The translations under genes and the position numbers were made by a program. A stretch of 32,000 nucleotides of DNA from Geotalea uraniireducens Rf4. GTDB taxonomy: Bacteria; Desulfobacterota; Desulfuromonadia; Geobacterales; Geobacteraceae. The first letter of the stretch is position 1. Each line of letters opens with the position of its first letter. This document shows positions 4,232-26,880 of the stretch, piece after piece. Below the pieces are notes generated by a model, which did not search any database, had not been told where the DNA came from, and saw only the letters and a program-made list of their open reading frames with translations. The stretch covers positions 1,140,001 to 1,172,000 of the forward strand of contig NC_009483.1 in NCBI RefSeq assembly GCF_000016745.1, in the 5' to 3' direction.

Positions 4232-4311
4232 ACGCAAAGACGCAGAGCCGCAGAGAAAAAAGCTCTAAAAAACGAGCCATTGATCTTCTTTGCGGCTCTG
4301 CGCCTCTGTGT
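4232..4311. repeat. period-8 hairpin array
   Basis: The left arm is ACGCAAAG ACGCAGAG CCGCAGAG (4232..4255). The right arm is CTTTGCGG CTCTGCGC CTCTGTGT (4288..4311). In register, 20 of 24 positions are complementary, and the loop is 32 nt and A-rich. Confidence 0.85.
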
Positions 4312-4372
4312 AAATTTATGTTTTCCGCACTATCGAATACAGTTGCAGGTTTTCATCCGGAGTTTTTAAACG

Positions 4373-4550
4373 GTCGACAGGCTCCCTGGAGCCTGTCGGA
4401 CTTAGGGGATCGTAACGAGAGAATGGCAAATCGAGGACAGATTTTCGGAAATTTGAGAGCGAATAGTGGACCTATTTGTCGAAAATTTCCGGTAATATGG
4501 ACCGATTTTCCGTTCTCGCAGTAGATTCATTCCTAAGTCCGACAGGCTCC
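4373..4550. repeat. MITE-like long palindromic element bounded by a perfect 19-nt inverted repeat
   Basis: GGAGCCTGTCGGACTTAGG (4388..4406) and CCTAAGTCCGACAGGCTCC (4532..4550) are exact reverse complements. The 125 nt between them is itself an imperfect palindrome (for example TTTTCGGAAATTT / AAAATTTCCGG). An extra short forward copy GTCGACAGGCTCC (4373..4385) forms a mini-hairpin with the left arm. The right arm abuts the TAG stop (4550..4552, minus strand) of the 976-aa gene. Confidence 0.8.
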
Positions 4551-7480
4551 TAAAGATTGGCGTAGATTGTGAAGTAAATCCGGTCCTCTCCCCCCTGGTT
4601 AAATCCGTGGGCATAGCCGACCGCCGGGGTGATCTTCAGCCAGTAACCGAGGGTCATGTCGAAGCGTCCCTCCACTCCTGCCCCTACCTTGAGCCGGTCC
4701 AGCTTGAACGAACGCTGGTCGTCCCAGACTTCCCCCACATCGGTAAAGACGGCTCCGTGCAGCCTGTCGAAAAAGAACGGCTTGGTACCGAAACCACGCA
4801 GCAGATACCAGAGCGGAGCCCGGTACTCGACGGTGCCGGTGGCGACATACTTGCCGGTCTCGAAGCGGGCCGGGTAACCGCGCAGGGGGAACTGGACGAG
4901 GTTGCCCGGCTCGCCTCCCAGCTGGAAAGCCTGCTGCACGGTGCGTTCGCCGGTGGCCACGCCGCCGTTCAGGCTGTAGGTGAGCACATGATGCCGCAGA
5001 GGCTGTGAGGGGAGATGGAGGTACTCGGTGTAGGCGGCCAGGTACTCCTCCCCGTCCAGGTCTGAGCCCCGCTGCCGGGAGTAGTTCCGGTAGGTGAAGG
5101 AGATGGTGCGCCCTTCCTCGTGGCTGATTGAGTAAGGGTATTTCAGGTTGTCGGCGAACTCGATGCCGGCGAAGATGTTGTCGCGGCGACCCTGGAAGAC
5201 CGGCAGACCGTTGAAACGGTCGTTCTGCAGCCTGCTTAAGGCCGACTGGTCCTGGAGGTGGTAGCCGAAGAAGAGGCGGTAGGATGATTCGAGGAAATTG
5301 AGCGGCACGCTCGTTTCGAGGATCAGGCTCCGGTTCTGCTCGTAATAGTCACCCCGCTGCAGCAGGTCGGAATAAAAGACCGGCTGGGCGTAGCTCTGAA
5401 GGAGAAACGACGGGTAGAGGTAATCGTTCCGGTAGGCGAGGTTGTAATAGACCTTGTGATGCCCGGTGCCGTAGGTTAATTCTGCGAGATAGCTGTTGTA
5501 GCCGAGCACGTCCTGGCCAGCGGTAAAAGCACCGAAAGCGTTATGGTCCTGGTCCTCGCTGTAGATCCGCGGCAGCCAGAAACGTGGGTAAAGAGTCTCC
5601 CAGGGAGAGTAAGGGGCCGGTTTGCCGATGGCCGGATTGTCGCCGGGCAGGCTACGTTCTGCTGCTGCCGGCCCGGCATCCTGCCAGTATGGGGTGATGG
5701 ACGGTCCCCGCTGTAATGTCCAGCTGTTCCGGTCGAGGGTGAGGGACGCGATGTTGAACCCCCTCGCGGTATAACTGCTGAAGACCAGGGTGTCGTCGTC
5801 CGGGGCTGCGTCGGGCTGCATGGCTCCGCCGAGAAGGTGGCTGACCTGGTAACTTTTCTCCTCCTTCAGGTCGTAGGCAAACAGGTTGTAGACCCCGGTT
5901 TCGTCGGACACGTAGTAGATGATCCTCCCGTCCCGGGACCAGCTGGGGTAGGCGGCGTTGTAGCTGACCGTCAAGAGCGGTCTGTCCTGGCCGCTCTTGA
6001 CATCATAGAGGCGGAGTGAGGTCTTGCCCCGGTTGTCGGTCACCGCATAGGCGATGGTCCTGGAATCGGGGGCCCATCGGGGGGTGGCAACCCTTTCCTG
6101 CCGGTAAGCGGTAACCAGGCGTGGCTTCAGGTTGTTGCGGCCGTCGAGTGTCTCACGGGCATCCAGCAGGGCCAGGTTCTGACTTCCCCGGTCGTTTACC
6201 GCCAGCGCAAAGTATTTTCCGTCGGGGGAGATCTCCGGGTCCTTGATGCGCAGGCCGCTGGTCAGCCGCTGCACCCGGTCGCGGCGGAGGTCGTAGGCGT
6301 AGAGGTCCTGGTAAATGTCGAAGCCCCGCACCACCTCGGCTTGGGCAAAGTAGAGCCGGTTGCCGTCGGGGGACCAGGAGAGTCCCTGGTCCGAGAACTG
6401 GCGGCGGAATTCCGCCTGGATGGTTGCCCCGTCCCGGCTGGTGATGACGGTCTTGCTGTGGCCGTGGGGGTCGTTGACGTTGAAGGCGAGCCTGCCTCCG
6501 TCCGGGGAAAAGCGCGGATTGGTGAGGTTCTCGCCGACGGTGCTTAAGACCTTAAGCGGGGTGAACGGGGCTTTTTCCAGTGTGGCGATGCGGCTCTGCT
6601 CTTCCTTTTTCAGGTCGTCAAGCATGTCCCGGTAGAGTTCGGCGTAATCCTTGCCGTTACAGAATTCTTCCGGAGGCGTGCCGATGGCGTAGGGAACCCG
6701 GCCGGCCTGGGCCAGGCTCAGCTTTCCCAGGGTTTCCTTGCCGTACTTGTCGGCGATGAACTTGGACAGGCGCAGGCCGAAGATGTAAGGGAGATGGCCG
6801 TTGGGCCAGTAGGGAACCTCGCCGTTCACCTTGTCGATGGAGGGGAGGCTGTTCGCGGCCACTGCCGAGCGGAGGATCATCTCGTAGGTGGCGCTCCGGC
6901 CGCGTCCCACGCCGGTGAACTCGGTCTCGCTCCAGGTCGCCATCCCCTCGTGCCACCAATGGGGCATGAACACATTTGGGGGGGCGGTGAAAATGAAAAT
7001 GGCGAGGCTGATAATGTCACCTGGAATAATGGGCTTGCCGAAGATGGAGCGGGTGATGCGGGAATAGCCCCGGGCCGTATCAGAGGTGACGATGTGGGCG
7101 TATTCGTGGAAGATGATCTCCTTCAGCCAGTCATCGTATTCCCCCAGCGTCGAATCGATGGAGGGGGGGACCACCTGGATGAAGACGGTATTATAGGGGA
7201 GTGGGGTGGCGAAGCCGTTGGTAAAGTCGGTATTGTCGATGAGCACCAGCTGGGTCTTTTCCCGCGGTTTCCAGTCGAACTGGGCGGTCAGCTTGCCGTG
7301 GGCGTCCTCGGCAAGCACAGCGGCCCGTTGGGCAATCTCTTCCAGTCCCTGGTGAAAATGGATGGAAAAGTGGTCGGTTTCAATGGTCGAAAAGGAGAAC
7401 GAGGTGTCCAGTCTTGCGGCGGCTGCAGGGGAGACAAATGCGGCAAGGAGGATGACGAGAAGCAGGAGGATTTTATTCAT
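4550..7480 (-). CDS. outer-membrane protein: signal peptide + gluzincin-like peptidase domain + PD40/TolB-type beta-propeller + Omp85-type beta-barrel
   Basis: 976 aa. Signal peptide MNKILLLLVILLAAFVSPAAAA. FHEYAHIV (HExxH) is followed by WWHEGMATWSE. Repeated SPDGGRLAF / SPDGNRLYF / SPDGKYFAL / APDSRTIAY / SRDGRIIYY motifs are present. The C-terminus (RGYP...EYRAPL...GAVFTDVG...VGAGVEGRF) looks like a bacterial surface-antigen barrel. Confidence 0.85.
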   Translation of the reverse strand: MNKILLLLVILLAAFVSPAAAARLDTSFSFSTIETDHFSIHFHQGLEEIAQRAAVLAEDAHGKLTAQFDWKPREKTQLVLIDNTDFTNGFATPLPYNTVFIQVVPPSIDSTLGEYDDWLKEIIFHEYAHIVTSDTARGYSRITRSIFGKPIIPGDIISLAIFIFTAPPNVFMPHWWHEGMATWSETEFTGVGRGRSATYEMILRSAVAANSLPSIDKVNGEVPYWPNGHLPYIFGLRLSKFIADKYGKETLGKLSLAQAGRVPYAIGTPPEEFCNGKDYAELYRDMLDDLKKEEQSRIATLEKAPFTPLKVLSTVGENLTNPRFSPDGGRLAFNVNDPHGHSKTVITSRDGATIQAEFRRQFSDQGLSWSPDGNRLYFAQAEVVRGFDIYQDLYAYDLRRDRVQRLTSGLRIKDPEISPDGKYFALAVNDRGSQNLALLDARETLDGRNNLKPRLVTAYRQERVATPRWAPDSRTIAYAVTDNRGKTSLRLYDVKSGQDRPLLTVSYNAAYPSWSRDGRIIYYVSDETGVYNLFAYDLKEEKSYQVSHLLGGAMQPDAAPDDDTLVFSSYTARGFNIASLTLDRNSWTLQRGPSITPYWQDAGPAAAERSLPGDNPAIGKPAPYSPWETLYPRFWLPRIYSEDQDHNAFGAFTAGQDVLGYNSYLAELTYGTGHHKVYYNLAYRNDYLYPSFLLQSYAQPVFYSDLLQRGDYYEQNRSLILETSVPLNFLESSYRLFFGYHLQDQSALSRLQNDRFNGLPVFQGRRDNIFAGIEFADNLKYPYSISHEEGRTISFTYRNYSRQRGSDLDGEEYLAAYTEYLHLPSQPLRHHVLTYSLNGGVATGERTVQQAFQLGGEPGNLVQFPLRGYPARFETGKYVATGTVEYRAPLWYLLRGFGTKPFFFDRLHGAVFTDVGEVWDDQRSFKLDRLKVGAGVEGRFDMTLGYWLKITPAVGYAHGFNQGGEDRIYFTIYANL

Positions 7481-7768
7481 GGTCTACCTTCCGGTGCTGG
7501 AGTAAGTCAGGCTGGGCGGATTGTAACCCGACATCCCCGGATAGTAAACATGAATAATGAGACGTTTCTCTTCTGCTTGGCGGCGGGGAGGGGCAACACA
7601 TAGTTGTGGCTCCCCGCCGGTGCCAAGGCCCGCCATAAAAGGAGATGGGGTAAAACGTAACCCCGTGCCGATATCGGCTATGGCGGACCTGTCTCGCCGG
7701 TGCCGGCAATGAAATCATCGAACCTGTTGGCATCGATTTATGTAATATATCGGCTTTAAATTTGATTT

Positions 7769-8728
7769 CTAAAGTGCAAAATGACCCAGCGCCCCCCACC
7801 AGGCCGCTATCACCACAACGGCTCCGGCCAGCGCCAGCAGGGCGTTGATCCGCCGCCCGGGCCGCCCGTACTTCCCTGCCAGGTATTCCGTAACCAGGCC
7901 AAGACCTATGCCGAAGACAAAGCCGAACAGGTGTGCACCCAGATCTGTGTGTTCACCTTCTGTGCCCAACAATGCGAGCAGGGCCATGGCAGCAGCAACG
8001 GGGAGTAGCCGGCGCTTTTGCAGGTGGTGCCGGTAGTGCACCATGTTGAGGGCGGCGAGTATGCCGACGGCGCCGAAGACGAGGGTGGAGGCGCCGATCG
8101 AGCTATGGTCCGGCAGCTGCAAGCAGGCGTTGGCCAGGTTGCCGAGGATGCCGGCGCCGAGGAGCATGCTCCAGGCCAGCCCCGAGCCGAGCTCGCGGCA
8201 GAGGATGATGATGAAGACCCCGCCGATTGCCAGGTTGCCGAGAAGGTGCTGCCAGTTGGAGTGGAGGGTGAGGGCGGTGATCGGCCGCCACCATTGGCCG
8301 GCCAGTATCTTGGCGGCGTGTGCGTTGCCGAGGGCGATCCAGTTGATCGGGTGATGGCCGGGCAGAGAAATGTCGAGCAGGGTAAGGTTGTGGAAGGTGG
8401 CCAGGAGAATCAGGACCGACATGGTTGCCAGGGTGTTCTCCGTCAGGGTTCTTGCCGGAGGCAGGGGCGGGGGCCAGTTGCGGTTTTCCTTTTCAAAGAG
8501 GCGCAACTCGTCCCGGGCCGCATTGAGGTAGCCCACCGGCACCAGCAGTTGCCAGCCCGTAGCGCTCCGCTCGGTGCGGAAGGGCACGCCGCGTGCATCC
8601 AGGACCAGGGTCCAGAGGCGTACCTGCCGCTCGGAAAGTGTGCCGCTGTCTTTCCAGACTCCCAACTCCGGCGGGATTGCCAGCCACTCCTCTTCGCATG
8701 CCTCGATGTTATCTCTCTCCGGATCCAT
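7769..8728 (-). CDS. rhomboid-family intramembrane serine protease
   Basis: 319 aa. A ~100-aa soluble N-terminus is followed by TM helices with WQHLLGNL (HxxxN) and the catalytic GASTLVFG (GxSxxxF) motif. Confidence 0.85.
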   Translation of the reverse strand: MDPERDNIEACEEEWLAIPPELGVWKDSGTLSERQVRLWTLVLDARGVPFRTERSATGWQLLVPVGYLNAARDELRLFEKENRNWPPPLPPARTLTENTLATMSVLILLATFHNLTLLDISLPGHHPINWIALGNAHAAKILAGQWWRPITALTLHSNWQHLLGNLAIGGVFIIILCRELGSGLAWSMLLGAGILGNLANACLQLPDHSSIGASTLVFGAVGILAALNMVHYRHHLQKRRLLPVAAAMALLALLGTEGEHTDLGAHLFGFVFGIGLGLVTEYLAGKYGRPGRRINALLALAGAVVVIAAWWGALGHFAL

Positions 8729-8761
8729 AACAGATAGTATCGCAGATACTCAGCAGCTTAA

Positions 8762-10166: not shown

Positions 10167-12254
10167 TTATGGCGGGCCATCCTCTTCCAACAGGGCCAGA
10201 GCTCGCCGGCAAATGTTTTCCACGGTGAAGCCGCATTCAGCCGGAACGACGTCACCCGGAGCTGAAGCGCCAAAACACTCTACTCCGAGGACATTTCCGT
10301 CCGAGCCGACGTAGCGGTGCCATCCTTGCGGCGCCCCTGCCTCAACTGCCAGTCGCCTGCTGACCTGCGGCGGGAGGACAGAGTCGCAGTACTCTTGCGG
10401 CTGCAGATCGAAGAGCTCCCAGCTTGGCAGTGAGACGACCCGGGTCAGGATGTTCCTTTCCAGGAGCTTCTTACGCGCTGCAAGCACGAGAGCCACTTCC
10501 GAGCCGGTAGCAATGAGGATCAGTGCAGGGAGCTTGCCTTCGGCATCAGCAAGGATATAACCGCCGCGACGGAGTCCGTCGGCTGTAGCGTAGCGGCTCC
10601 GGTCAATGATTGGGAGATCTTGCCGCGAGAGGAGAAGCGCCACCGGCCGGTCCGCTGTCTCCAGCGCCACCTGCCAGGCGACTGCTGTCTCATTGGCGTC
10701 CGCGGGACGGATCACCACCAGGTTCGGGATGGCCCTGAGTGTTGCCAGATGCGCTACCGGCTGGTGGGTGAAGCCGTCTTCCCCCATACCGATGCTGTCA
10801 TGGGTGAAGACGTGGATTACGTGCAGTCCCATCAATGCTGCAAGACGCAAGGATGGGCGGAGATAGTCGGAGAACTTGAGAACGGTGGCGCCGAAGGGAA
10901 TAAGCCCGCCGTGAGCTGCCATGCCGTTCAGAACCGCTCCCATGGCATGTTCGCGTACTCCGAAATGTATGTTGCGGCCGCCGTATCCCCTTTCCTCGCC
11001 GATCGCCCCTGGCCGGTCGACGGGGGGGAGGCCGGGGTTCCCGAAATCCCCCAGACCTTTCAAGGAAGTGTGGGGTGAAGGGTCCGGATCTGCCGATCCG
11101 CCGAGAAACGATGTGAGCCGGGGGGCGATGGCATTCATCACCATGCCCGAGGCGACCCTGGTTGCCATACCCTTAGAGTCTGCCTGGAAATCGGGAATAT
11201 CCATGTCCCAGCCGGGGGGGAGCTTTCCCGCCATTGCCAGGCGGAGTTCCTTGGCGAGCTCAGGGTATGCTTCTTCATAGGCGGCAAACCGGGCATTCCA
11301 TTCCGCTTCCCGTTTCTTCCCCTGTTTCAATGCCAGATGAAAGTAGCGGAGCGCTTTTTTGGGGATATAAAATAGCGGATCCAACGGCCAGCCGAGGTTT
11401 TCCTTGGTCAGCTTCACCTCTTCCGCGCCAAGAGGCAAGCCGTTGACTTCGAAGCTGTCCGGTTTGTCGGGCGAGCCGTGGCCGATGTGGGTGCGGATGA
11501 GAATGATGGACGGCCGCGACGTCTCGTTCCGGGCTTTGGTGATGGCCCTTCCGATAGTCGCCAGGTCATTGCCTTCCGCCACTGTTTGCACGTGCCAGCC
11601 GTACGCAGCGAATCTCCCGGCTCTGACTTCAGTGAATGCGAGATCTGTCGAGGCCGTCGGCGAGAGCCGGTTGTCGTCGTAGAGGCAGATGAGCTTTCCC
11701 AGCCCCAGGTGGCCGGCCAGTGAGGCTGCTTCTGCCGCCACTCCTTCCATGAGATCGCCGTCGCCGGCAAGGCAGTATGTGTAGTGGTCGATTATCTTGA
11801 AACGGGGCCGGTTGAAGCGGACGGCGAGGTGCGATTCGGCGATTGCCATGCCGACGGCGTTGCCGAATCCCTGGCCGAGGGGGCCGGTGGTTGTCTCTAT
11901 TCCCGGTGCAACCCATCGATCGGTATGGCCGGGGCGGCTCCTCCATTGGCGGAATCGCTCAATCTCTTCCAGGGGGAGGTCGTAGCCGGTGAGATGGAGC
12001 AGGCTGTAGAGGAGCATGGAACCGTGGCCTGAAGAAAGGACGCATCGGTCGTGGTCGAGCCATCCGGGATTGGCCGGATTGTGCCGCAGGAATCGTGTCC
12101 AGAGGACAAACGCCATGGGCGCCGCTCCCAAAGGCATTCCCGGATGGCCGCTGTTCGCCTTCTGTACGGCATCGACCGACAGGAAGCGAATGGTGTTGAT
12201 GCAGAGCGTATGTACATCAGCCGGGATGGAAGTGGACGATAGGTCGTTCTTCAT
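10167..12254 (-). CDS. tkt: transketolase
   Basis: ORF 10167..12413. I prefer ATG 12254 (MKNDLSS...; AAGGAA upstream). Motifs are [45 protein letters not shown] and [16 protein letters not shown]. Confidence 0.9.
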
Positions 12255-14001: not shown

Positions 14002-14325
14002 ATGAACGGCTCACAAGACCGCTATAACGTCAATTTCTTTAAACCCAAAAAAGGCTACATGCGGGATGAGGTCAGGATCATCCTGCTGATCCTGTTCGGC
14101 TGGGTGGTGGCGACCTTCGGCTTCCAGTTCCTGCTCTGGCTGCTTGCCGATACGAAGGGTGAAAGCTTTCTGACCCTGCGCACGTTTTTTACCCTTCCGT
14201 TCCATTTCTGGTTCACCGGCCAGTTTCTTCCCCTCTGGTTCATAATCCTCTGCGTGATCTTCAATATCTACACCGATCGTCTTACGGAAAGCCACAGCCG
14301 CAGGAGAGACAGATCCTATGACTAA
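14002..14325 (+). CDS. DUF4212-type small membrane subunit of a sodium:solute symporter
   Basis: 107 aa with two TM helices, SD GAGGAGG, and an overlap with the next gene's start (ATGACTAA). This is the typical partner of VC_2705-type symporters. Confidence 0.85.
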   Translation: MNGSQDRYNVNFFKPKKGYMRDEVRIILLILFGWVVATFGFQFLLWLLADTKGESFLTLRTFFTLPFHFWFTGQFLPLWFIILCVIFNIYTDRLTESHSRRRDRSYD

Positions 14326-15847
14326 AGATCCCGTTTCCATCTGGCCGCTCGTCATTGTCGTCGGTGTCCTGATCGCCTTTGTCATGGCCGGACTGCGTGC
14401 CAAGGCCAGGGAAAGCTCCGACTACGGCTTCGGCGGACGCTATATCGGCCGTATCGGCGGCGGTGCGGCAATCGCCAGCAACTGGATGAGCGCCGCCAGT
14501 TTTCTCGGCATGGCCGGACTTCTCTATCTCCACGGCTATTTCGCCTTCGCCTACATCATCGGCTGGACCGGAGGATACGTGCTTCTGCTCGTACTGATGG
14601 CCGGCCAGATACGGCGTTTCGGCAAGTACACCACCCCCGATTTTGTCGGCGACCGCTATGCATCGCCTGCGGCCAGGCTCATCGCAGCGGTCATTTCCAT
14701 AACCATTTCCATCATCTACTGCATAGCCCAGTTCAAGGGGATCGGCATGGTCTTCGCCTGGCTCCTGGGGAGCGACTACACGAACGGCCTGATGGTTGGC
14801 GGGGGGGCGGCGGTTTCCTACGTGGTGATCTGCGGCATGCTCGGCGTGGCGAGAAACCAGCAGATGCAGTACTTTGTCCTCATCGTCTCGTTCATCGTCC
14901 CGCTCATGTTCCTTGCCTACAAGCTCGGTTATTTCTGGATTCTTCCCCAGTTCGGTTACGGGCAGGGGGTTCAGGATCTGGCGGGGGAGTTCCGAATCGA
15001 TTTTGCGTCACCATTTGCCGCCGGTTCACTCTTTCAGTGGTGCGCCCTCTGCTTTACCCTCATGGTCGGCACTGCCGGACTTCCCCATGTCCTCTCCCGC
15101 TTCTACGTGGTTCCCAATATTCGCGACGCACGCTGGAGCCTGGTCTGGGGTCTCTTTTTCATCGCACTCATCTACTGGTCCGCCCCGGCTTATGCGGTTT
15201 TTGCCCGGCTTTTCGAAGCTCGCAGCGGGGCGATCCCTGATCCTGCTGTTGCCGCAAAGATGGCGGACATTGTCGTGTTGAAGGCGGCGGTAATGGGAGG
15301 GCTCCCTGACTGGCTGGTCGGCATCCTGGCCGCAGGCGCGGTCAGTGCGGCGTTCTTTACGGTAGCTGGGCTCCTTATGACAGGCGCTTCATCCTTTTCC
15401 CATGACATTTACTATCGGCTCATCAATCCGCAGGCTTCGGAGGCCCGTAAAATGGCCATTGCCAAGGGGAGCTCCCTGGCCCTGGCCGGCATCGTCTTCC
15501 TCCTGGCCCTGAAACCGCCGGCGCTGATAGCCGAAATAACTGCGGTAGCCTTTGCCCTGGCCGGAAACACCATTTTTCCCGTATTCCTCATAGGTATCTG
15601 GTGGGGACGGGCCAATCACCAGGGGGCCATTGCCGGGATGTTGACGGGGATCGTGATAACCTTCTCATCGCCGCTGTTCGGCGGCGTGGTCCCTTTCATT
15701 TCAACAGTTTTCCCTGTTACTGCTTCGGCACTGTGCGGTGCGCCGCTGGTGATTGCCGTGATGATAGCGGTTTCGCTTCTGACGCCTCCTCCTCCCGAGG
15801 AGATGCGGCGCTTTCTTGCCGAGCAGGTGCACGGGCATTTGGATTAG
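14318..15847 (+). CDS. sodium:solute symporter family permease (VC_2705 / ActP-like, probable monocarboxylate/acetate uptake)
   Basis: 509 aa and polytopic, with SSF-like sequence throughout (GGRYIG, NWMSAASFLGMAG, GLPHVLSRFY). It is translationally coupled to the DUF4212 gene. Confidence 0.9.
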   Translation: MTKDPVSIWPLVIVVGVLIAFVMAGLRAKARESSDYGFGGRYIGRIGGGAAIASNWMSAASFLGMAGLLYLHGYFAFAYIIGWTGGYVLLLVLMAGQIRRFGKYTTPDFVGDRYASPAARLIAAVISITISIIYCIAQFKGIGMVFAWLLGSDYTNGLMVGGGAAVSYVVICGMLGVARNQQMQYFVLIVSFIVPLMFLAYKLGYFWILPQFGYGQGVQDLAGEFRIDFASPFAAGSLFQWCALCFTLMVGTAGLPHVLSRFYVVPNIRDARWSLVWGLFFIALIYWSAPAYAVFARLFEARSGAIPDPAVAAKMADIVVLKAAVMGGLPDWLVGILAAGAVSAAFFTVAGLLMTGASSFSHDIYYRLINPQASEARKMAIAKGSSLALAGIVFLLALKPPALIAEITAVAFALAGNTIFPVFLIGIWWGRANHQGAIAGMLTGIVITFSSPLFGGVVPFISTVFPVTASALCGAPLVIAVMIAVSLLTPPPPEEMRRFLAEQVHGHLD

Positions 15848-15852
15848 AAGCA

Positions 15853-15985
15853 GTCGGCGGTCGGCGGTCGGCGGTCGGCAGTCGGCAGTCGGCAGTCGGC
15901 AGTCGGCGGTCGGCGGTCGGCGGTCGATGGTCGATGGTCGATGGTCGATGGTTGATGTTGGTTCCAACCGCCGACCGCCGACCGC
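15853..15985. repeat. tandem heptanucleotide array (15 units) with a short inverted tail
   Basis: 3x GTCGGCG, 4x GTCGGCA, 3x GTCGGCG, 4x GTCGATG and 1x GTTGATG span 15853..15957. A GTTGG-TT-CCAAC tip follows, then CGCCGAC CGCCGAC CGC (15969..15985), which is complementary to the GTCGGCG units. Confidence 0.9.
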
Positions 15986-16002
15986 ATTTACAGGAGTTTC
16001 CT

Positions 16003-17244
16003 ATGGCGATTTTTCTTGGGGCAAAGGGTGGCGATATTCTGGCGACCCGGAGCGTCACCGACTTGATGGCCGGGTTGAAGGGAAAATTGGATGAGAAAAT
16101 GGCCTATCTTCTTTCCGGCGAGGATGAAGACCTCCTGCTGGGTTTCAAGAGACGGCTTGAAGAGGAGCTGGTTTTTGAAGAGGACGTTTCCGCCCGCTTT
16201 GCCGACTGCATGGCGGAGCTGGAACGTGTGGAATATGTGGACCAGCTTCCTGACTTGCTTGAACGGTTCAATCGGACGGCAACCGATCATTTCGCCCGTC
16301 GTGGTTCGGTGGTGGCGCTTCATGAGTTATGCACCGCCTGTTACGATGTCGTAATGCGCAAGGCCCTGGAACTGGCTGTGGCCGGCATGGAACTGGACTC
16401 AAAGGAGAGCCCGGCTGTCCCCTATTGTTTTCTGGCCGGGGGGAGTGCGGGGCGCATGGAACAGACCCTCGGCGACGGGGCCGAATACTTCCTTGTTCAC
16501 GAAGATTACTGTGGCGACTTTTCTGCATATTTCGAAGAGTTTGCCTACAGGTTCATCGCCATTCTGAAGTTGTGCGGGTTTGCAAGTGCCGGCAAACGTC
16601 CCCTTTCAGGCGCAGGGGTGTGGCACGGCGCCGGAGACGGGTGGCGGAGTTGGGCCCGAAACCAGCTGCATCATGGCTGGGATGGGCTGAGCGCCGGGCT
16701 GGCGAGTCTCGCCGACCTGCGCGGGATTTGCGGCGACGAGACGATGATTGCCGACCTGACGAGGTTTGCACGCAACGTGCTCATGGAGGAACAGCAGTCG
16801 GAAACATTTACGCCGGCAATGAGGAAGTTATCTTCCATGCCGGTGGCGCTCGGCATGTTCGGCGGTTTCAGGGTTTCAAGGAGCGGTGAGCATCGGGGAG
16901 AGTTCGATCTGGAGGCATTCGCCCTGAATCCGTTGGTCATGAATGTCCGTATCCTGGCAATACGCCATGGCCTGGCGGAGACCGGCACTGTCGGCCGGAT
17001 CAAGGCTCTCCTCGACGGTGGACACCTGGGGGTGGAGCTGGCCGAAAGGCTGTTAAATGCTTACCATATCGTTACCCGGCAGAAGATCATCATGGAAATA
17101 GTTCATGGCGCCGTGATGACGGAGGGCTTTTTCCTCAATCCCGAAGACCTGTCGGCGGAAGAAGCGCATCGTCTGAAAATCGGCCTGGAAGCGGTGCTCA
17201 GCCTGCAGCGGATCGTTTATCAATCTTTCGCGGAGCAAGGTTAG
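16003..17244 (+). CDS. DUF294-like putative nucleotidyltransferase / substrate-binding protein lacking cNMP and CBS sensor modules
   Basis: I prefer ATG 16003 (AGGAG at 15992..15996) over the 15601 ORF start, which reads through the repeat. The product is 413 aa. The GGSAGRMEQTLGD segment and a helical C-terminal half resemble DUF294 + DUF294_C, a family often found next to DUF4212/SSF pairs. Confidence 0.7.
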   Translation: MAIFLGAKGGDILATRSVTDLMAGLKGKLDEKMAYLLSGEDEDLLLGFKRRLEEELVFEEDVSARFADCMAELERVEYVDQLPDLLERFNRTATDHFARRGSVVALHELCTACYDVVMRKALELAVAGMELDSKESPAVPYCFLAGGSAGRMEQTLGDGAEYFLVHEDYCGDFSAYFEEFAYRFIAILKLCGFASAGKRPLSGAGVWHGAGDGWRSWARNQLHHGWDGLSAGLASLADLRGICGDETMIADLTRFARNVLMEEQQSETFTPAMRKLSSMPVALGMFGGFRVSRSGEHRGEFDLEAFALNPLVMNVRILAIRHGLAETGTVGRIKALLDGGHLGVELAERLLNAYHIVTRQKIIMEIVHGAVMTEGFFLNPEDLSAEEAHRLKIGLEAVLSLQRIVYQSFAEQG

Positions 17245-18160: not shown

Positions 18161-18985
18161 ATGAAGTCCCGTCTGCTCCTTTTCACCCTGCTGTTTTCCC
18201 TTGTCTGCGCCGTTTCCGCCAATGCCGCACAACCCGAGCTAAAGAAGAATACGCCGGTCTTAAGCCAGGCTGTGAACGTCCCCATTCTCCTCTATCACCG
18301 CTTCGGTCCTACCGTGGCCGATGGCATGACCATTACCACGTCGGTGTTCGAGTCCCACCTCAAATATCTCCGGGATAACGGCTACAAAGTCATCCCCCTG
18401 CGCCAATTGGTTGATTACTACCAGAAGAAGGGGCCGGCGCCTGCGCCGAAATCAGTGGTCATCGTCGAGGATGACGCCCATAAGACCGTTTACAGCGACA
18501 TGCTGCCGCTGGCAAAGAAGTATAACGTGCCGGTGACGGTCTTCGTCTACCCATCGGCCATATCCAACGCCAAATACGCCATGACCTGGGACCAGCTCCG
18601 CGCATTGAAGAAAACCGGGCTGTTCGAAGTCCAGTCCCACACCTACTGGCACCCGAATTTCAAGCGGGACAAAAAGAAAATGAAACCGGCCGAGTTCGAG
18701 AAGTCGGTGGACGTGCAGCTGCGGAAATCCAAGGCAAAGCTGGAAAAGGAGCTGGGAATATCGGTGGACATGCTCGCCTGGCCGTTCGGCATCTATGACG
18801 ATTATCTGCTGAAAAAGGCGGCCGAAGCGGGATACAAGGTCACCTTCACCATAGAGCGCCACCATGCCGGTGCTACTGATTCGGTCATGAAACTCCCCCG
18901 TTATCTGCTCATAAATGCCGACCAGGGTAAGGCGTTCGCCCAGATCCTGGCGGGAACTGCGCCCAAGCGGAATATCGCCTATTGA
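18161..18985 (+). CDS. secreted polysaccharide deacetylase (NodB-homology) family protein
   Basis: 274 aa. Signal peptide MKSRLLLFTLLFSLVCAVSANA. ILLYHRF, VVIVEDDAHK, FEVQSHTYWH and LAWPFG are present. SD GGAGG. Confidence 0.8.
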   Translation: MKSRLLLFTLLFSLVCAVSANAAQPELKKNTPVLSQAVNVPILLYHRFGPTVADGMTITTSVFESHLKYLRDNGYKVIPLRQLVDYYQKKGPAPAPKSVVIVEDDAHKTVYSDMLPLAKKYNVPVTVFVYPSAISNAKYAMTWDQLRALKKTGLFEVQSHTYWHPNFKRDKKKMKPAEFEKSVDVQLRKSKAKLEKELGISVDMLAWPFGIYDDYLLKKAAEAGYKVTFTIERHHAGATDSVMKLPRYLLINADQGKAFAQILAGTAPKRNIAY

Positions 18986-18988
18986 TGC

Positions 18989-19142
18989 GAGGAAAGAGGA
19001 GCGAGGTTCTAGGAACGAGGAGTGAGGAACGAGGCCGAACAGGTTCTCCTCGAACCTCAAACCTCTAACCTCTAACCTCTAACCTCTAACCTCTAACCTC
19101 TAACCTCTAACCTCTAACCTCTAACCTCGTTCCTCTTTCCTG
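18989..19142. repeat. period-7 palindromic array (GAGGNNN arm / NNNCCTC arm with 9x TAACCTC)
   Basis: The left arm is GAGGAAA GAGGAGC GAGGTTC TAGGAAC GAGGAGT GAGGAAC GAGGCCG. A central hairpin pairs AGGTTC with GAACCT (19041..19057). The right arm is GAACCTC AAACCTC, 9x TAACCTC (19066..19128), GTTCCTC TTTCCTG. The outer 17 nt (18990..19006 versus 19125..19141) are complementary at 16 of 17 positions. Confidence 0.9.
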
Positions 19143-19149
19143 GAATCTT

Positions 19150-21512: not shown

Positions 21513-21541
21513 CCACTGCCTGCGAGTCGAAGTTAAACATA

Positions 21542-21664
21542 AAGTTTACAAATGCTAAACTTGGCGTTAGACAGAATGTTTAGAATCGCTAAACTTGTTA
21601 TTAGACAGAAAGTTTACTGTAGGTAAACTTTTCATAATACAAAATGTTTACGATTACTAAACTT
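21542..21664 (+). promoter_or_regulatory. array of four palindromic sites AAGTTTA-N7-TAAACTT spaced exactly 34 bp apart (candidate operators of the XRE-cupin regulator)
   Basis: Sites start at 21542, 21576, 21610 and 21644: AAGTTTAcaaatgcTAAACTT, ATGTTTAgaatcgcTAAACTT, AAGTTTActgtaggTAAACTT, ATGTTTAcgattacTAAACTT. The last ends 1 nt before SD GGGAGG (21665..21670) of the TTG-initiated regulator gene. Confidence 0.55.
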
Positions 21665-21675
21665 GGGAGGTTTGC

Positions 21676-22221
21676 TTGAAGATTGGCGAGAGGTTAAAGC
21701 GGCTCAGAATGATCAACTCCCTGACCCAGGAAGAGTTGGCCAGCCGCGCTGACCTTACCAAGGGTTACATTTCCCAGCTGGAAAATGATGCTACCTCGCC
21801 TTCTATTGCAACGCTGAAGGACATCATCGATGTCTTCGGCGTCAGCATGCAGGAGTTCTTCAGCGAAGTTACCGACGAGGATATCGTTTTCGGCAAGGAT
21901 GCACGGGTTCAGGCCACTGACGACGACGACAAGATCAAGGTCGAACTGCTGGTGCCCGGTGCCCAGAATCGGGAAATGGACCCGGTTCTCGTCACCCTCG
22001 ACCCCGGCGAGGAGATGGATGAGCAGCCTTTTCACGAGGGGGAGGAGTTCGGTTACGTGCTTCTCGGCAAGGTACAGTTGAAGCTGGACGACAAGCTTTA
22101 CACCGTCAAGAAGGACGAGTGCTTCTATTTTACCTCCGACAAGCGGCACACGGTGAAGAACGCCGGCAAGACCCCGGCGAAGATTTTATGGGTGGTGACG
22201 CCACCCACGTTTTATTATTGA
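21676..22221 (+). CDS. XRE-family HTH + cupin-domain transcriptional regulator (PuuR-like architecture)
   Basis: 181 aa with a TTG start after GGGAGG. The N-terminal HTH_3 is LKRLRMINSLTQEELASRADLTKGYISQLEN. The C-terminal cupin includes HEGEEFGYVLLGKV...FYFTSDKRHTVKN. Confidence 0.85.
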   Translation: MKIGERLKRLRMINSLTQEELASRADLTKGYISQLENDATSPSIATLKDIIDVFGVSMQEFFSEVTDEDIVFGKDARVQATDDDDKIKVELLVPGAQNREMDPVLVTLDPGEEMDEQPFHEGEEFGYVLLGKVQLKLDDKLYTVKKDECFYFTSDKRHTVKNAGKTPAKILWVVTPPTFYY

Positions 22222-22223
22222 TC

Positions 22224-22304
22224 GTGCTGCGTGCTGCGTTCAGCGTGCTGCGCAATGATGGTTCCGCTGCGCGGAACAAAAGTACGCTGAACGCTGAACG
22301 CACA
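22224..22304. repeat. period-7 hairpin array (GTGCTGC/GTTCAGC arm versus ACGCTGA arm)
   Basis: GTGCTGC GTGCTGC GTTCAGC GTGCTGC spans 22224..22251. An inner hairpin is GTTCCGC-tgc-GCGGAAC (22261..22277). ACGCTGA ACGCTGA ACGCACA spans 22284..22304. TGCGTTCAGCGT (22235..22246) is perfectly complementary to 22291..22302. Confidence 0.9.
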
Positions 22305-22320
22305 AGAAGGAGGCATATAT

Positions 22321-23517
22321 ATGAGCAAAGTATTGATAATCGGAGCAGGTGGAGTCGGCGGGGTCGTCACGCACAAGTGCGCCCAGGCGAAAGACGTAAT
22401 CACCGGTATCACCCTGGCTTCCCGTACGGAGTCGAAATGCAAGGCCATAGCGGCCCAGATCGACTTTCCCGTGAAGACCGCCCAGGTCAATGCCGACAAT
22501 GTGCCCGAGCTGGCGGAGCTCATCAGGAAGGAGCAGCCAAAGCTTGTTATCAACGTTGCCCTCCCGTATCAAGACCTGACCATTATGGATGCCTGTCTGG
22601 CAACGGGGGTCGATTACCTGGACACAGCCAACTACGAGCCGCTCGACACTGCAAAATTCGAGTACAGCTGGCAATGGGCGTACCAGGACCGGTTTCGCGA
22701 AAAGGGGCTCATGGCGCTTCTGGGAAGCGGTTTCGATCCGGGGGTGACAAACGTCTATACGGCCCTGGCTGCGAAAAAATACCTGGACGAGGTGCAGGAG
22801 ATCGACATCATCGATGCCAACGCCGGCAGCCACGGCCAGCCTTTTGCCACCAATTTCAATCCGGAGATCAACATTCGCGAGGTCACCGCAACCTGCCGCC
22901 ACTGGGAAAACGGCCAGTTCGTTGAGTCGCCACCGCTCTCCACCAAGCATGTCTTCGATTTCCCCGAGGGGATCGGCCCGATGAACATCTACCGTCTCTA
23001 CCACGAAGAGATGGAGTCGCTGGTCAAGCACATACCGACCATCAAGAAGGCCCAGTTCTGGATGACCTTCTCCGACAACTACCTGAAGCACCTGGAGGTG
23101 CTGCAGAACGTGGGTATGACCCGCATCGACGAGGTGGAGTTCAACGGTCAGAAAATCGTGCCGATCCAGTTCCTGAAAGCCCTGCTCCCCGATCCCGGCT
23201 CCCTGGGGCCGCTCACCAAGGGGAAGACCTGCATCGGTGTCATCGCACGCGGCATCAAGGACGGGAAGCGCAAGCAGGTCTACATCTACAACATCTGCGA
23301 CCACGAGGCGTGCTACCGGGAAGTCAAGTCCCAGGCCATCAGCTACACCACCGGCGTGCCGGCTGTGGTTGGGGCGATCATGATGCTCACCGGTAAATGG
23401 CACAAACCGGGTGTCTGGAATATGGAGCAGTTCGATCCGGAGCTGTTCCTGGAAACGCTCGGCCCCATGGGGCTGCCGACGGTTGTCGTCGACGGGGGCG
23501 AGTGGCCGGAACTGTAA
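22321..23517 (+). CDS. carboxy(nor)spermidine dehydrogenase (saccharopine dehydrogenase family)
   Basis: 398 aa. MSKVLIIGAGGVGGVVTHKCAQ Rossmann start, SD AAGGAGG, length and sequence typical of CASDH/CANSDH, and adjacency to nspC. Confidence 0.9.
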   Translation: MSKVLIIGAGGVGGVVTHKCAQAKDVITGITLASRTESKCKAIAAQIDFPVKTAQVNADNVPELAELIRKEQPKLVINVALPYQDLTIMDACLATGVDYLDTANYEPLDTAKFEYSWQWAYQDRFREKGLMALLGSGFDPGVTNVYTALAAKKYLDEVQEIDIIDANAGSHGQPFATNFNPEINIREVTATCRHWENGQFVESPPLSTKHVFDFPEGIGPMNIYRLYHEEMESLVKHIPTIKKAQFWMTFSDNYLKHLEVLQNVGMTRIDEVEFNGQKIVPIQFLKALLPDPGSLGPLTKGKTCIGVIARGIKDGKRKQVYIYNICDHEACYREVKSQAISYTTGVPAVVGAIMMLTGKWHKPGVWNMEQFDPELFLETLGPMGLPTVVVDGGEWPEL

Positions 23518-23523
23518 CGAAAA

Positions 23524-23597
23524 TGTAGGGGCGGGGTTTCCCCGCCCCATGCCTGTTAATCATTGATCATGTCGGGCGGGGGTACCCCGCCCCTACA
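23524..23597. repeat. G/C-run palindromic element (inverted TGTAGGGGCGGGG copies, each with its own GC hairpin)
   Basis: TGTAGGGGCGGGG (23524..23536) and CCCCGCCCCTACA (23585..23597) are reverse complements. Local hairpins are GGGGCGGGG-ttt-CCCCGCCCC (23528..23548) and GGGCGGGG-gta-CCCCGCCC (23574..23592). Confidence 0.85.
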
Positions 23598-23609
23598 GAA
23601 GGTTGAAAA

Positions 23610-24764: not shown

Positions 24765-24773
24765 ATTTTTCTT

Positions 24774-24850
24774 CCCCCTTTGGGAAAGGGGGATCGAGGG
24801 GGATTTGCCGAAGTTGAAATCCCCCCTTACCCCCCTTTGTTAAAGGGGGG
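24774..24850. repeat. three consecutive C5/G5 hairpins
   Basis: CCCCCTTT-ggg-AAAGGGGG (24774..24792); GGGGGATTT-10 nt-AAATCCCCC (24798..24825); CCCCCCTTT-gtt-AAAGGGGGG (24830..24850). They lie between nspC and speA. Confidence 0.85.
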
Positions 24851-24876
24851 ATTCGCATTTGTAAAGGTGGTTATTA

Positions 24877-26784
24877 ATGGAACGCTGGTCAATCAACGAC
24901 TCCGCAAAGATTTACAACCTCAACAACTGGGGCGCCGATCTTTTTTCTATCAACAAAAAAGGGAACGTTTGCGTCCACCCTTCGTCCAATTCGAAGCACT
25001 CCATCGACCTTCGGGCTCTGGTTGACGATCTGATCAAGCGGAAGATCAAGCCCCCCATTCTCCTCCGCTTCATGGACGTTCTGCAGGGGCGGATCGCCTC
25101 CATCAATCGCGTTTTCAAGAATGCCATCCAGGAGAACAATTACCCTGCCAAATACCAGACGTTCTACCCCATCAAGGTGAACCAGCAACGGCAGGTGGTG
25201 GAGGCGATCGCCAACTTCGGCAAGCGCTACAACATCGGCCTGGAGGTCGGTTCCAAGCCGGAACTGGTGGCCGGGATTTCCTTCGCAACCGGGAACAACC
25301 TCCCCATCATCTGTAACGGCTACAAGGATACCGAATACATCGAGATGGTCCTTTCCGCCACCAAGATCGGCTACGACATAACCCTTGTCGTCGAGAAGCT
25401 GTTCGAGCTGGAAAAGATCATCGAACTGGTCAAGAAGACGGGTGTTCAGCCGAAACTGGGGATCCGGGTGAAGCTCTCTTCCAAGGGGATCGGGAAATGG
25501 GCCACTTCCGGTGGCGAAGACGCCAAGTTCGGCCTGCGGATGTCGGAAATCATCGCCGCCATCGAGATGCTGGAAAAGCACGATCTCATCAAATGCGTGA
25601 AGCTACTCCATTTTCATATCGGCAGCCAGATCACGAAAATCGACAAGATCAAGACCGCCCTTATCGAAGGGGCCCGGATCTACGCCGAGATGAGGAAACT
25701 GGGGGTCGGCATCGAATATCTGGATATCGGCGGCGGCCTGGGGGTCGATTACGACGGCTCCAAATCCAGCAATTTCTCCAGCGTCAACTATTCCATCGAA
25801 GAATACGCCAACGACGTCATCTATCAGATCAAGAACATCTGTGAAGACGCCGGGGTGGAGTGCCCCAACATCATCTCCGAATCGGGGCGGGCCACGGTCG
25901 CCCACTACTCGGTGCTGGTGACCAACGTGCTCAACACCAACACACAGAACATCATGCCCGATTTCGAGGCGACCCTGAACGAGGCGGAAAAACTGGCCCC
26001 CACCGTCAAGAAGTTGGAGGACATCTACAAAAGCATCGACCGCTATTCGCTGCGGGAGGACTATCACGACACCCTCCAGCTGATTCAAGAAGCGGTCAGC
26101 CTCTTCAACCTGGGCTATCTGACGCTGAACGACCGGGCCATGGCCGAATGGCTCTACGGGAAGATCATTCGCAAGATCAACAGCATCGTGGAGAAGATCA
26201 AGCCGATTCCCGAAGAGTTGCAGAACTTTCAACTCTCGTTGCGGCAGACCTACTTTGCCAACTTTTCGCTGTTCCAGTCGGTTCCCGACTCCTGGGCCAT
26301 TGACCAGCTCTTCCCCATCGTCCCGATCCAGCGCCTGAACCAGAAGCCGGACGTGATCGCCTCCATCGCCGACATCACCTGCGATTCCGACGGAGAGATC
26401 ACCAGTTTCGTGGGGGAAAACGGCAGGACCAAATTCCTCCCGCTGCACAAGATCCGCAAAGACGAGGCTTACTACATCGGTTTCTTCCTGATCGGCGCTT
26501 ACCAGGAGATACTCGGTGACATGCACAACCTGTTCGGAGACACCAACGCCGTGCACATCACCTTCAACAAGAAGACCGGCTACATAATCGATACGGTCAT
26601 CAACGGCGACGCCACCTGGGAAAGCCTGAAATACGTCCAGTACAAGGGGCCGGAGATTCTGAAGCGGGTCCGCGACAACCTGGAAAAGGATGTGGCGCTA
26701 CGCAAGATCTCCATCGAAGAGAGCAGCCATTTCCTGGAGCTTTTGGACAGAACGCTATTGGGGTACACCTATCTGGGAGAGTGA
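24877..26784 (+). CDS. speA: biosynthetic arginine decarboxylase
   Basis: 635 aa. The N-terminus MERWSINDSAKIYNLNNWG..., the FYPIKVNQQ PLP-lysine motif and the overall length are typical of SpeA. Confidence 0.95.
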   Translation: MERWSINDSAKIYNLNNWGADLFSINKKGNVCVHPSSNSKHSIDLRALVDDLIKRKIKPPILLRFMDVLQGRIASINRVFKNAIQENNYPAKYQTFYPIKVNQQRQVVEAIANFGKRYNIGLEVGSKPELVAGISFATGNNLPIICNGYKDTEYIEMVLSATKIGYDITLVVEKLFELEKIIELVKKTGVQPKLGIRVKLSSKGIGKWATSGGEDAKFGLRMSEIIAAIEMLEKHDLIKCVKLLHFHIGSQITKIDKIKTALIEGARIYAEMRKLGVGIEYLDIGGGLGVDYDGSKSSNFSSVNYSIEEYANDVIYQIKNICEDAGVECPNIISESGRATVAHYSVLVTNVLNTNTQNIMPDFEATLNEAEKLAPTVKKLEDIYKSIDRYSLREDYHDTLQLIQEAVSLFNLGYLTLNDRAMAEWLYGKIIRKINSIVEKIKPIPEELQNFQLSLRQTYFANFSLFQSVPDSWAIDQLFPIVPIQRLNQKPDVIASIADITCDSDGEITSFVGENGRTKFLPLHKIRKDEAYYIGFFLIGAYQEILGDMHNLFGDTNAVHITFNKKTGYIIDTVINGDATWESLKYVQYKGPEILKRVRDNLEKDVALRKISIEESSHFLELLDRTLLGYTYLGE

Positions 26785-26791
26785 AAAGACT

Positions 26792-26875
26792 GTTCAACGT
26801 TCGAGGTTCGAGGTTCGACGTTGAAAACCACGTAGAACATAGAACGTCGAACATCGAACATCGAACATCGAACAT
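26792..26875. repeat. period-7 hairpin array (GTTCGAG arm versus CGAACAT arm)
   Basis: GTTCAAC GTTCGAG GTTCGAG GTTCGAC spans 26792..26819. AGAACAT AGAACGT then 4x CGAACAT span 26834..26875. GTTCGACGTT (26813..26822) is perfectly complementary to AACGTCGAAC (26843..26852), and flanking units match at 6 of 7 positions. Confidence 0.9.
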
Positions 26876-26880
26876 AAAAA

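Follow-up and report, generated by a model that had tools for sequence, protein, structure and literature searches.

Heptamers are the commonest long simple sequence repeats (SSRs) in many bacteria, and both their role and the preference for a unit of 7 nucleotides (nt) are barely understood. The STRR heptamers of heterocystous cyanobacteria, for example, comprise several unit types that are found in intergenic regions in variable copy number. Heptamer repeats with the unit TAACTGA were described in the Beggiatoaceae (PMC4679880), and polymerase slippage was proposed for the over-representation of heptamers among long bacterial SSRs (Mrazek et al. 2007, as summarized in two papers that cite it, PMC4679880 and PMC4692102). 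Here, we analyze a window of 32 kb from the genome of Geotalea uraniireducens Rf4 (NC_009483.1, positions 1,140,001 to 1,172,000), in which four spacers between co-directional genes hold arrays of heptamers facing arrays of the complementary unit. Such 7-base repeats paired with their complement are a fast-changing type of SSR, typical of the Geobacteraceae, which carry them at many operon junctions, and of some other bacteria. The type was already catalogued in this family (Aklujkar 2009, 2010), a point that an earlier note on this DNA could not decide; the loci of the window add new members.

The heptanucleotide repeats of Geobacter bemidjiensis (Gbem_R7001 to R7111), with the units [CAATTGA]n, [AACGTTG]n and [GGGGCTR]n, form more than 100 intergenic arrays in 65 regions (Aklujkar et al. 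2010, PMC2996986, Table S6). By our count from that table, 54 of the 65 regions are co-directional, 10 convergent and 1 divergent; 64 lie 3' of at least one gene, and 29 contain more than one array, often two to four per spacer (PMC2996986). These repeats and those of the window belong to the same bacterial family and consist of tandem 7-nt units that fill spacers in operons, mostly between the 3' end of one gene and the 5' end of its follower. However, three units occupy ~110 sites in G. bemidjiensis, and the two main ones are a palindromic hexamer plus one base, the array being its own complement, whereas at each heptamer locus of the window a nonpalindromic unit of its own faces a complementary arm that is separate from it. 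In G. metallireducens, opposite-strand sites that form pairs with variable spacing consist of four octamers, three octamers or nonamers, or five heptamers; they were annotated as predicted binding sites of a global regulator, with IHF or HU proposed (Aklujkar et al. 2009, PMC2700814). Class 3 of these sites (Gmet_I301 to I308) comprises eight pairs of five MTYCTGA heptamers, one of them between proB and proA (PMC2700814). Like the loci of the window, these are inverted pairs of heptamer arrays in intergenic DNA (there 75 to 115 nt apart), but one conserved unit recurs at eight places and is read as a protein-binding site, whereas the units of the window differ: none of GTCGGCG, CCTCTAA, GTGCTGC/ACGCTGA and GTTCGAG/CGAACAT fits the MTYCTGA consensus. 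Among the comparison loci that were fetched for this analysis (L-numbered; L081, L083 and L085 come from sister strains), only L011 matches it, at 11894 to 11988, between two polyamine-operon genes.

Inverted pairs are also known outside the family. The GGGAATC heptamers of Xanthomonas form arrays of 2 to 26 units, and 70 to 75 of ~185 sites are convergent inverted pairs capable of forming stem-loops; array length varies among species while the pair type is kept, and polymerase slippage was proposed (Rehm et al. 2015, PMC4692102). The likeness lies in intergenic heptamer arrays that occur as inverted pairs; unlike the window, Xanthomonas, of a different phylum, has one G-rich, quadruplex-forming unit. 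The STRR and TAACTGA repeats, too, are tandem intergenic heptamers close to start or stop codons and of variable copy number, but they are mostly direct arrays without a complementary arm, and they have other units and belong to other phyla. Finally, in Haemophilus influenzae, (ATCTTTC)n is the left arm of a hairpin in the 5' untranslated region (UTR) of hmw1A that is cut by RNase III and controls expression, and changes in repeat number need both transcription and the hairpin (PMC12721329). For the window, too, we predict in silico long imperfect hairpins in which a heptamer array faces a partner arm of unequal size. The partner arm of hmw1A is a G-rich region, however, not an array, and the element lies in the 5'-UTR of a phase-variable adhesin gene; for hmw1A, cleavage by RNase III and the effects on expression were demonstrated by experiment, whereas the hairpins of the window are predicted and their co-transcription is suggested by gene order.

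Array pairs in four co-directional spacers

The window was examined with Tandem Repeats Finder (TRF), an inverted-repeat search, RNA folding against dinucleotide-preserving shuffles, a terminator scan, Rfam and Pfam. TRF, the inverted-repeat search and folding together bear out the claim of the earlier note that hairpin-forming arrays of period 7 or 8 recur at five loci: four period-7 pairs, starting at 15853, 18988, 22223 and 26791, and one period-8 pair at 4232. The period-7 arrays reported by TRF are 15853-15926 (GTCGGCG, 10.6 copies, 97% matches), 15922-15957 (GGTCGAT, 5.1 copies), 15967-15985 (ACCGCCG, 2.7 copies), 18988-19034 (CGAGGAA, 6.7 copies, 67%), 19048-19128 (CCTCTAA, 11.6 copies, 97%), 22223-22252 (4.3 copies), 22284-22301 (2.6 copies), 26799-26822 (3.4 copies) and 26835-26875 (5.9 copies); the period-8 array is 4232-4256 (3.1 copies), and the highest TRF score in the window is 148. 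Under a definition of 7-nt SSRs as at least three head-to-tail copies of high identity, seven of the arrays count as such, with 3.4 to 11.6 copies and 67 to 97% matches. The arms pair at all five loci, with 73 to 100% complementarity and a separation of 20 to 92 nt, that is, as opposite-strand arrays within ~100 nt. Each locus folds into one long imperfect hairpin (z = -8.85, -3.70, -4.42, -6.14 and -8.81/-7.72 against the shuffles), and at none of the five did any shuffle fold as well as the native sequence. Thus, because the heptamer arrays occur as inverted pairs, the co-directional spacers that contain them can, according to the folding model, form a long imperfect hairpin.

Our gene map assigns ~4.1 kb (13%) of the window to intergenic DNA, which contains all five loci. 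The four heptamer loci, to which the statement of one unit per locus applies, each lie between plus-strand genes, and they share no sequence with one another or with anything in ~0.43 Mb of Geobacteraceae DNA beyond orthologous sites; likewise, the units of the window are absent from ~1.3 Mb of fetched loci except at orthologous sites. No unit of the window recurs at a second locus there or in the 0.43 Mb from relatives; in L011, the unit CAGCAAC occurs at two loci. The idea that the five loci share one architecture but no sequence, and so are not copies of one mobile element, therefore holds for the four heptamer loci and fails for the octamer locus, which is a copy of a dispersed family (see below).

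At the 15853 locus, the left arm (15853-15957, plus strand, as for all heptamer arms) reads (GTCGGCG)3 (GTCGGCA)5 (GTCGGCG)3 (GTCGATG)4 GTTGATG according to TRF and folding, and begins 5 nt past the TAG (15845-15847) of an SSF symporter gene (14318-15847). The array also self-pairs, by G.U pairs, in RNA of the plus strand, with a minimum free energy of -96.6 on the plus strand versus -60.6 on the minus strand. The right arm (15964-15985; TRF, inverted-repeat search) consists of 2.7 copies of ACCGCCG, the complement of GTCGGCG, can pair in many registers (inverted-repeat pairs I7 to I14), and ends 6 nt before the AGGAG of a DUF294 nucleotidyltransferase gene that starts at 16003.

The 18988 locus begins 2 nt past the TGA (18983-18985) of a polysaccharide deacetylase gene (18161-18985). 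TRF and the inverted-repeat search detect its left arm (18988-19034), a degenerate (NNNGAGG) array of 6.7 copies with 67% matches, and, together with folding, its right arm (19048-19147), with 11.6 copies of CCTCTAA at 97% followed by CCTCGTTCCTCTTTCC. The right arm ends 2 nt before the ATG (19150) of a 60-amino-acid (aa), Cys-rich open reading frame (ORF), and two Logan unitigs (L087 and L082) break within it. The predicted hairpin is made only of 4-bp helices between 3x3 loops.

The remaining two loci flank polyamine genes. At 22223, 1 nt past the TGA (22219-22221) of an HTH-cupin regulator gene (21676-22221), the left arm (22223-22252; TRF, inverted-repeat search, folding) reads GTGCTGC GTGCTGC GTTCAGC GTGCTGC. 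A small core hairpin (22261-22277, GTTCCGC-TGC-GCGGAAC, plus strand), found by folding, occupies the loop, and the right arm (22281-22302; TRF, inverted-repeat search), ACGCTGA ACGCTGA ACGCA, stops ~5 nt short of the AAGGAGG that precedes the carboxynorspermidine dehydrogenase (CANSDH) gene (22321-23517), the best relatives of which are from Geobacteraceae, at 82 to 92% identity. At 26791, 6 nt past the TGA (26782-26784) of the arginine decarboxylase gene (24877-26784), TRF, the inverted-repeat search and folding define a left arm (26791-26822), GTTCAAC GTTCGAG GTTCGAG GTTCGAC GTT, and a right arm (26835-26875), AGAACAT AGAACGT (CGAACAT)4, which pair with one G.A mismatch in each heptad. Thus, all four heptamer arrays stand directly behind plus-strand stop codons and three end near the next Shine-Dalgarno (SD) sequence or start codon, as the earlier note had it; behind the 26791 pair comes a separate terminator instead of an SD sequence.

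This terminator (26873-26915), an A7-stem-T7 hairpin (-24 kcal/mol, z = -7.1), closes the polyamine operon as an intrinsic terminator for both directions and is separate from the repeat grammar; the order there, with genes identified by Pfam, is arginine decarboxylase, array plus terminator, and MFS transporter. It is the only one of these hairpins that qualifies as a Rho-independent terminator. The four heptamer hairpins lack a U-tract, being followed by ATTTACAGG, GGAATCTTATG, ACAAGAAGG and ATAAAAAAAG, and do not appear in the output of the terminator scan. Because of the missing U-tracts, partial intrinsic termination, one of the roles considered in the earlier note, is unlikely. Rfam gave no match at the gathering score anywhere in the window.

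Because the repeat units contain no stop codons, long ORFs run through the arrays: one of 547 aa (15601-17244) and one of 448 aa (26781-28127) span the 15853 and 26791 loci, where independent gene calls start at 16003 and 26955, respectively. In practice, such arrays break short-read assemblies, create spurious ORFs and mislead start-codon calls.

Variation among sister strains and relatives

The same arrays are carried by independent Logan unitigs from three runs of the Sequence Read Archive (SRA), with unitig breaks only within the longest arrays. Between close strains, the loci differ by whole units, by the loss of an arm and by a deletion of the center. Three alleles of the 22222-22320 spacer were found among strains with an identical HTH-cupin protein. 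The window and the three runs have the full 99-nt hairpin. In L081 and L085, the spacer is 37 nt long and consists of the right arm only, ACGCTGA ACGCAGC ACGCACA, the left arm being absent; this allele and the full one differ by 62 nt, and the junction is not a clean deletion. In L083, a 32-nt spacer, TCGTGCAGCACGCACAAG, keeps only the base of the stem, with the center-deleted remnant CGTGCAGCACG, as would be expected, judging from the sequence, of a central palindrome deletion. The left-arm units GTGCTGC and GTTCAGC of the window are exact complements of two right-arm units in L081; therefore, both arms of this locus descend from one mixed array.

Whole-unit variation in copy number between the window and L081, which the earlier note had suggested looking for in orthologous gaps, is seen at two further sites. 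At 26835, L081 has two fewer CGAACAT units, along with a left arm, GTTCGAG GTTCGAC GTTCCAT, in which some units are substituted; at 15964, it has ~5 units against 2.7. The gap between the polysaccharide deacetylase gene and the Cys-rich ORF holds a single (GTGAGGA) array of 10.9 copies in L008 and is 9 nt long in L006. The degenerate GAGG arm of the 18988 locus corresponds to this single array of L008, and the CCTCTAA arm, being 97% uniform, is therefore recent. The array of L008 (2706-2781) begins 1 nt after the stop codon, and every unit contains an SD-like GAGGA and a GTG, so that possible sites for ribosome binding and for starts follow one another upstream of the small Cys-rich ORF. In L081, the spacer upstream of this 60-aa ORF is wholly different from that of the window, and a ~4-kb insert with Bro-N, DUF1016 and hypothetical genes (3454-7732) lies between the ORF and a response-regulator gene.

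Orthologous gaps in relatives range from 0 to 4 nt up to ~390 nt, with unrelated hairpin inserts. The spacer between the HTH-cupin and CANSDH genes is 20 to 37 nt long in relatives. The gap from CANSDH to the carboxynorspermidine decarboxylase (CANSDC) gene is 0 to 4 nt in seven relatives and 45 to 234 nt, with unrelated hairpin inserts, in most others; one gap of 824 nt holds extra ORFs. Arrays without a partner also occur, in L008 (GTGAGGA, 10.9 copies), L021 (CGCTACT, 5.4 copies) and L081, and the hairpin is therefore not obligatory. L011 is as array-rich as the window: a core resembling a terminator lies between 3.7 copies of GCTGGTT and 13.4 facing copies of CAGCAAC, TACAGAA stands opposite ATTCTGA, and octamer arms contain nested heptamer arrays.

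Both period 7 and complementary partners are enriched in the family. Arrays of at least 3 copies were tabulated in 0.41 Mb of Geobacteraceae DNA (the window plus L001 to L021) and in 0.89 Mb of DNA of other phyla. In Geobacteraceae, the commonest period is 7, with 17 of 35 arrays (11 of 27 without the window), versus 10 of 65 in other phyla. A complementary array within 250 nt accompanies half of the Geobacteraceae period-7/8 arrays (10/20), compared with 0/20 in the reversed-sequence control and 2/14 in other phyla.

Searches with individual sequences of the window gave no further alleles. An exact-protein look-up returned no match for the 60-aa ORF, a 379-aa ORF and the DUF294 protein (queried from start 16024, not 16003), and only the same strain for the SSF, DUF4212, PRT, polysaccharide deacetylase and SpeA proteins; a metagenome scan with TATATATGAGCAAAGTA gave 120 matches, all random and none with the locus.

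A proposed origin by slippage in short spacers, and its rivals

We lean, by a small measure, toward a mutational origin of the heptamer loci, in which slippage-driven repeats and an inverted copy, followed by separate evolution of the arms and trimming, account for what is seen and any function is at most secondary. A heptamer array would arise, and grow by replication slippage, in an originally very short spacer. An inverted partial copy would then arise nearby, either from an error of replication (strand switch or fold-back) or from correction templated by the hairpin, and the two arms would separately gain, lose and homogenize whole units, leaving unequal arms and a mismatch pattern every 7 nt. 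Long palindromes would be trimmed through deletion of the center or loss of an arm. Read in this order, the window and the sister strains picture the course of change, with arrays in once-tiny spacers, an inverted partner gained, arm-wise slippage and palindrome collapse. Any function would be secondary and not locus-specific: a transcribed, structured spacer of variable length could modulate the processing or stability of the neighboring cistrons.

Under a slippage origin, the position of the arrays from stop codon to ribosome-binding site would be fixed because only the spacer tolerates expansion; the ancestral spacer being tiny, an expansion must therefore start just past the stop codon and end at the SD sequence. 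Independent convergence on one design, as invoked by the earlier note, is thus not needed to explain the positions, given orthologous spacers of 9 to 37 nt in the relatives that allow a comparison and a neighboring CANSDH-CANSDC gap of 0 to 4 nt in seven of them, whereas slippage, which the same note named as a possible generator, agrees with the whole-unit differences between sister strains. Its observation that the arms are unequal by whole units also stands, at ~16 versus 2.7 and 6.7 versus ~14 units. Furthermore, uniformity within an arm reaches 97% (CCTCTAA and GTCGGCG), but the dominant units of opposite arms are complementary at only 4 to 6 of 7 positions. The sequences within arms being more uniform than the arms are complementary, the comparison points to independent slippage inside each arm, not to inter-arm templating or selection for perfect pairing. 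From these comparisons we infer the order of events and the strand-switch step, and from gene order co-transcription.

Several points weigh against a slippage origin. The step that creates the complementary arm is one that we infer; different species have inserts of the hairpin type at identical junctions of an operon; and arrays are nearly absent from divergent promoter regions of G. bemidjiensis (1 of 65). Both of the latter hint at selection or at a transcription-linked origin, as opposed to pure neutrality. In addition, the statement of one unit per locus is based on four loci in 32 kb, and slippage leaves the preference for 7 nt unexplained.

Some of the same points would be accounted for if the hairpins were selected intercistronic RNA elements, that is, double-stranded RNA substrates or barriers (for RNase III, or protecting against 3' exonucleases) that set cistron ratios, with unit number as a rheostat; we hold this to be possible but doubtful. 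The four heptamer loci run from stop codon to ribosome-binding site between co-directional genes, hairpin inserts of unlike sequence stand at the same operon junctions in several relatives, and a single divergent region among the 65 of G. bemidjiensis has a P(≤1) of ~3e-4 if ~15% of intergenic regions are assumed to be divergent. The unit variants GTCGGC and GTCGAT of the 15853 array keep G.U pairing on the sense strand only, and hmw1A offers the precedent of a heptamer hairpin cut by RNase III (PMC12721329). Nevertheless, seven relatives have CANSDH and CANSDC 0 to 4 nt apart and sister strains lack the hairpin, which is therefore dispensable; some arrays have no complementary arm, Rfam holds no match, the 18988 hairpin offers only weak 4-bp helices between its 3x3 loops, and there is no consistent folding advantage of the sense strand. 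A sense-strand G.U bias was accordingly not used as a sign of selection at the RNA level, the sense strand being more stable at 3 of 5 loci. An extension of the RNA reading by analogy with hmw1A, in which the arrays would be evolvable intercistronic rheostats genome-wide, with a hairpin that RNase III or another factor of its kind cuts or binds, a slippage-set length that tunes the cistron ratio, and transcription and the hairpin promoting slippage, is speculative, and we consider it improbable. If it were true, the hmw logic of H. influenzae would operate at dozens to hundreds of junctions of housekeeping operons in Geobacteraceae; arrays that modulate mRNA processing would be a widespread, rapidly mutable layer of control over relative gene output in operons.

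Explanations at the DNA level fare worse. That the heptamer hairpins are nonautonomous mobile elements inserted in spacers, such as MITEs (miniature inverted-repeat transposable elements), REPINs or elements like the repetitive extragenic palindromes (REPs), would fit their presence or absence in orthologous gaps and the behavior of other elements of the window, namely, the dispersed octamer family and the 1903-2031 element with its second copy. It is quite improbable, however: dispersed copies, which mark REP, REPIN and MITE elements, are a feature of the octamer and 1903-2031 elements but not of the heptamer loci, which share no sequence with one another or, outside orthologous sites, with ~0.43 Mb of Geobacteraceae DNA, have neither conserved termini nor target-site duplications, and differ between alleles by whole units and palindrome-type deletions, not by clean excisions. 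We give slightly less credence still to the arrays being DNA lattices bound by a nucleoid protein or global regulator (such as IHF or HU), a proposal that Aklujkar et al. made for G. metallireducens, where the paired opposite-strand sites are annotated as predicted regulator sites and insertion sequence elements land at a constant spacing from class 1 sites. Conserved arms of the octamer type, as at 4232 and in relatives, would suit a sequence-specific binder, but the heptamer units differ at every locus of the window, so that they cannot all be recognized by one sequence-specific protein. Moreover, strains differ in copy number, whereas in the operator-like array of 34-bp units (21533-21665) the number of copies is constant across strains, and a period of 7 bp is out of step with the helical repeat. 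Chance or an assembly artefact can practically be discounted: short-read unitigs do break in long arrays, and exact copy numbers could be off, but TRF scores reach 148, no shuffle folds as well, three independent SRA runs yielded the same sequences and an ENA assembly a diverged allele, and all five loci lie in the ~13% of the window that is intergenic.

Three other candidates were dismissed. Palindromic units do not explain the pairs, the units of the window being palindromic at 2 to 4 of 7 positions, like random heptamers, compared with 6 of 7 for those of G. bemidjiensis and G. metallireducens (null, 10%); a 7-nt period leaves no room for the spacers of a CRISPR; and coding repeats are at odds with arrays outside genes and with a unit that is not a multiple of 3.

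The octamer family and other elements of the window

Most spacers of the window longer than ~60 nt are hairpin-forming inserts, of which the heptamer pairs are one subclass. The octamer element (4232-4311, minus strand), delimited by TRF, the inverted-repeat search and folding, has two arms around a 28-nt core: ACGCAAAG ACGCAGAG CCGCAGAG (4232-4257) and its complement TTCTTTGCG GCTCTGCG CCTCTGTG (4286-4311). Positions 4288 to 4311 read TCTTTGCG GCTCTGCG CCTCTGTG, and 4232 to 4255 are the inverted copy, so that three octamers of the TCTTTGCG type are present. Its neighbors are two genes on the minus strand (3465-4091 and 4550-7480); the element lies 239 nt downstream of the second and does not adjoin a stop codon. 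L011, L014, L016 (twice) and L021 have inverted pairs whose outer ends are the same (AACGCRRAG RCGCWGAG...) and whose cores vary, and the 4232 locus is therefore a copy of a dispersed, sequence-conserved octamer family present in at least four relatives and in G. bemidjiensis. The catalogue of the latter also lists octanucleotide repeats, YTT[TCTTTGCG]3TGAGG, and related nonamers (PMC2996986); in G. metallireducens, the class 1 and class 2 paired sites are the nearest counterpart. The octamer type is common to these and to the 4232 arms (TCTTTGCG, GCTCTGCG and CCTCTGTG), but the TGAGG flank is missing from the window copy, which has TAAAT after the third unit, while L014 has TGAGG; moreover, the G. 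bemidjiensis family covers the octamer locus only, not the heptamers. In its arms and dispersal, the octamer family resembles a MITE or a REPIN.

A Methylophaga contig (L026) carries three arms of the octamer type, ACCACAGAG GCACAGAG, in 14 kb (4425-4440, 6544-6559 and 6894-6909); their resemblance to the CTCTGYG-type repeat arms of Geobacter hints at a wider spread of this arm type. Near the octamer element of the window, a perfect 19-nt inverted repeat, GGAGCCTGTCGGACTTAGG, at 4388-4406 and 4532-4550, encloses 125 nt, abuts the stop codon of a PD40-repeat peptidase gene and may likewise have been inserted.

Upstream of the HTH-cupin regulator gene, and just downstream of a promoter-like TTGACA-17-TATTAT site, a 34-bp unit is repeated 3.9 times (21533-21665), each unit with the inverted half-sites AGTTTAC...TAAACTT. 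Its copy number is equal in L081, L083 and L085 and thus stable, unlike that of the heptamer arrays; therefore, the array probably represents four tandem operators, as yet putative, for the regulator of the polyamine operon.

Hairpins of a non-heptamer kind occupy three further co-directional spacers. The element at 1903-2031, of 129 nt, has AATTCC arms and 22-nt inverted ends (AATTCCAATTCCAAATCAAGG...). A second copy, seen in L214 (13840-13870), begins directly after a terminator that is ~3 kb to the right of the window, and both copies interrupt unitigs; we take it to be a MITE-like dispersed element of this genome. At 23524-23597, between the dehydrogenase and decarboxylase genes, there is a REP-like palindrome, TGTAGGGGCGGGG...CCCCGCCCCTACA, of the GTAGGGGCG type, and kindred GTAGGGGCG...CGCCCCTAC palindromes occur in other spacers of the polyamine operon in L006, L008, L081 and L083. 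Finally, a hairpin at 24774-24849, upstream of speA, has arms of 9- to 10-nt repeats (GGGGGATCGAGGGGGAT / CCCCCCTTACCCCCCTT), in place of which L081 (13028-13224), L001 and L008 have a GGCGTAGCAGCGCTACGTC-centered element, close to the GRCGTAGCGCTGCTACGCC palindrome that was catalogued in G. metallireducens upstream of genes of lysine and arginine metabolism.

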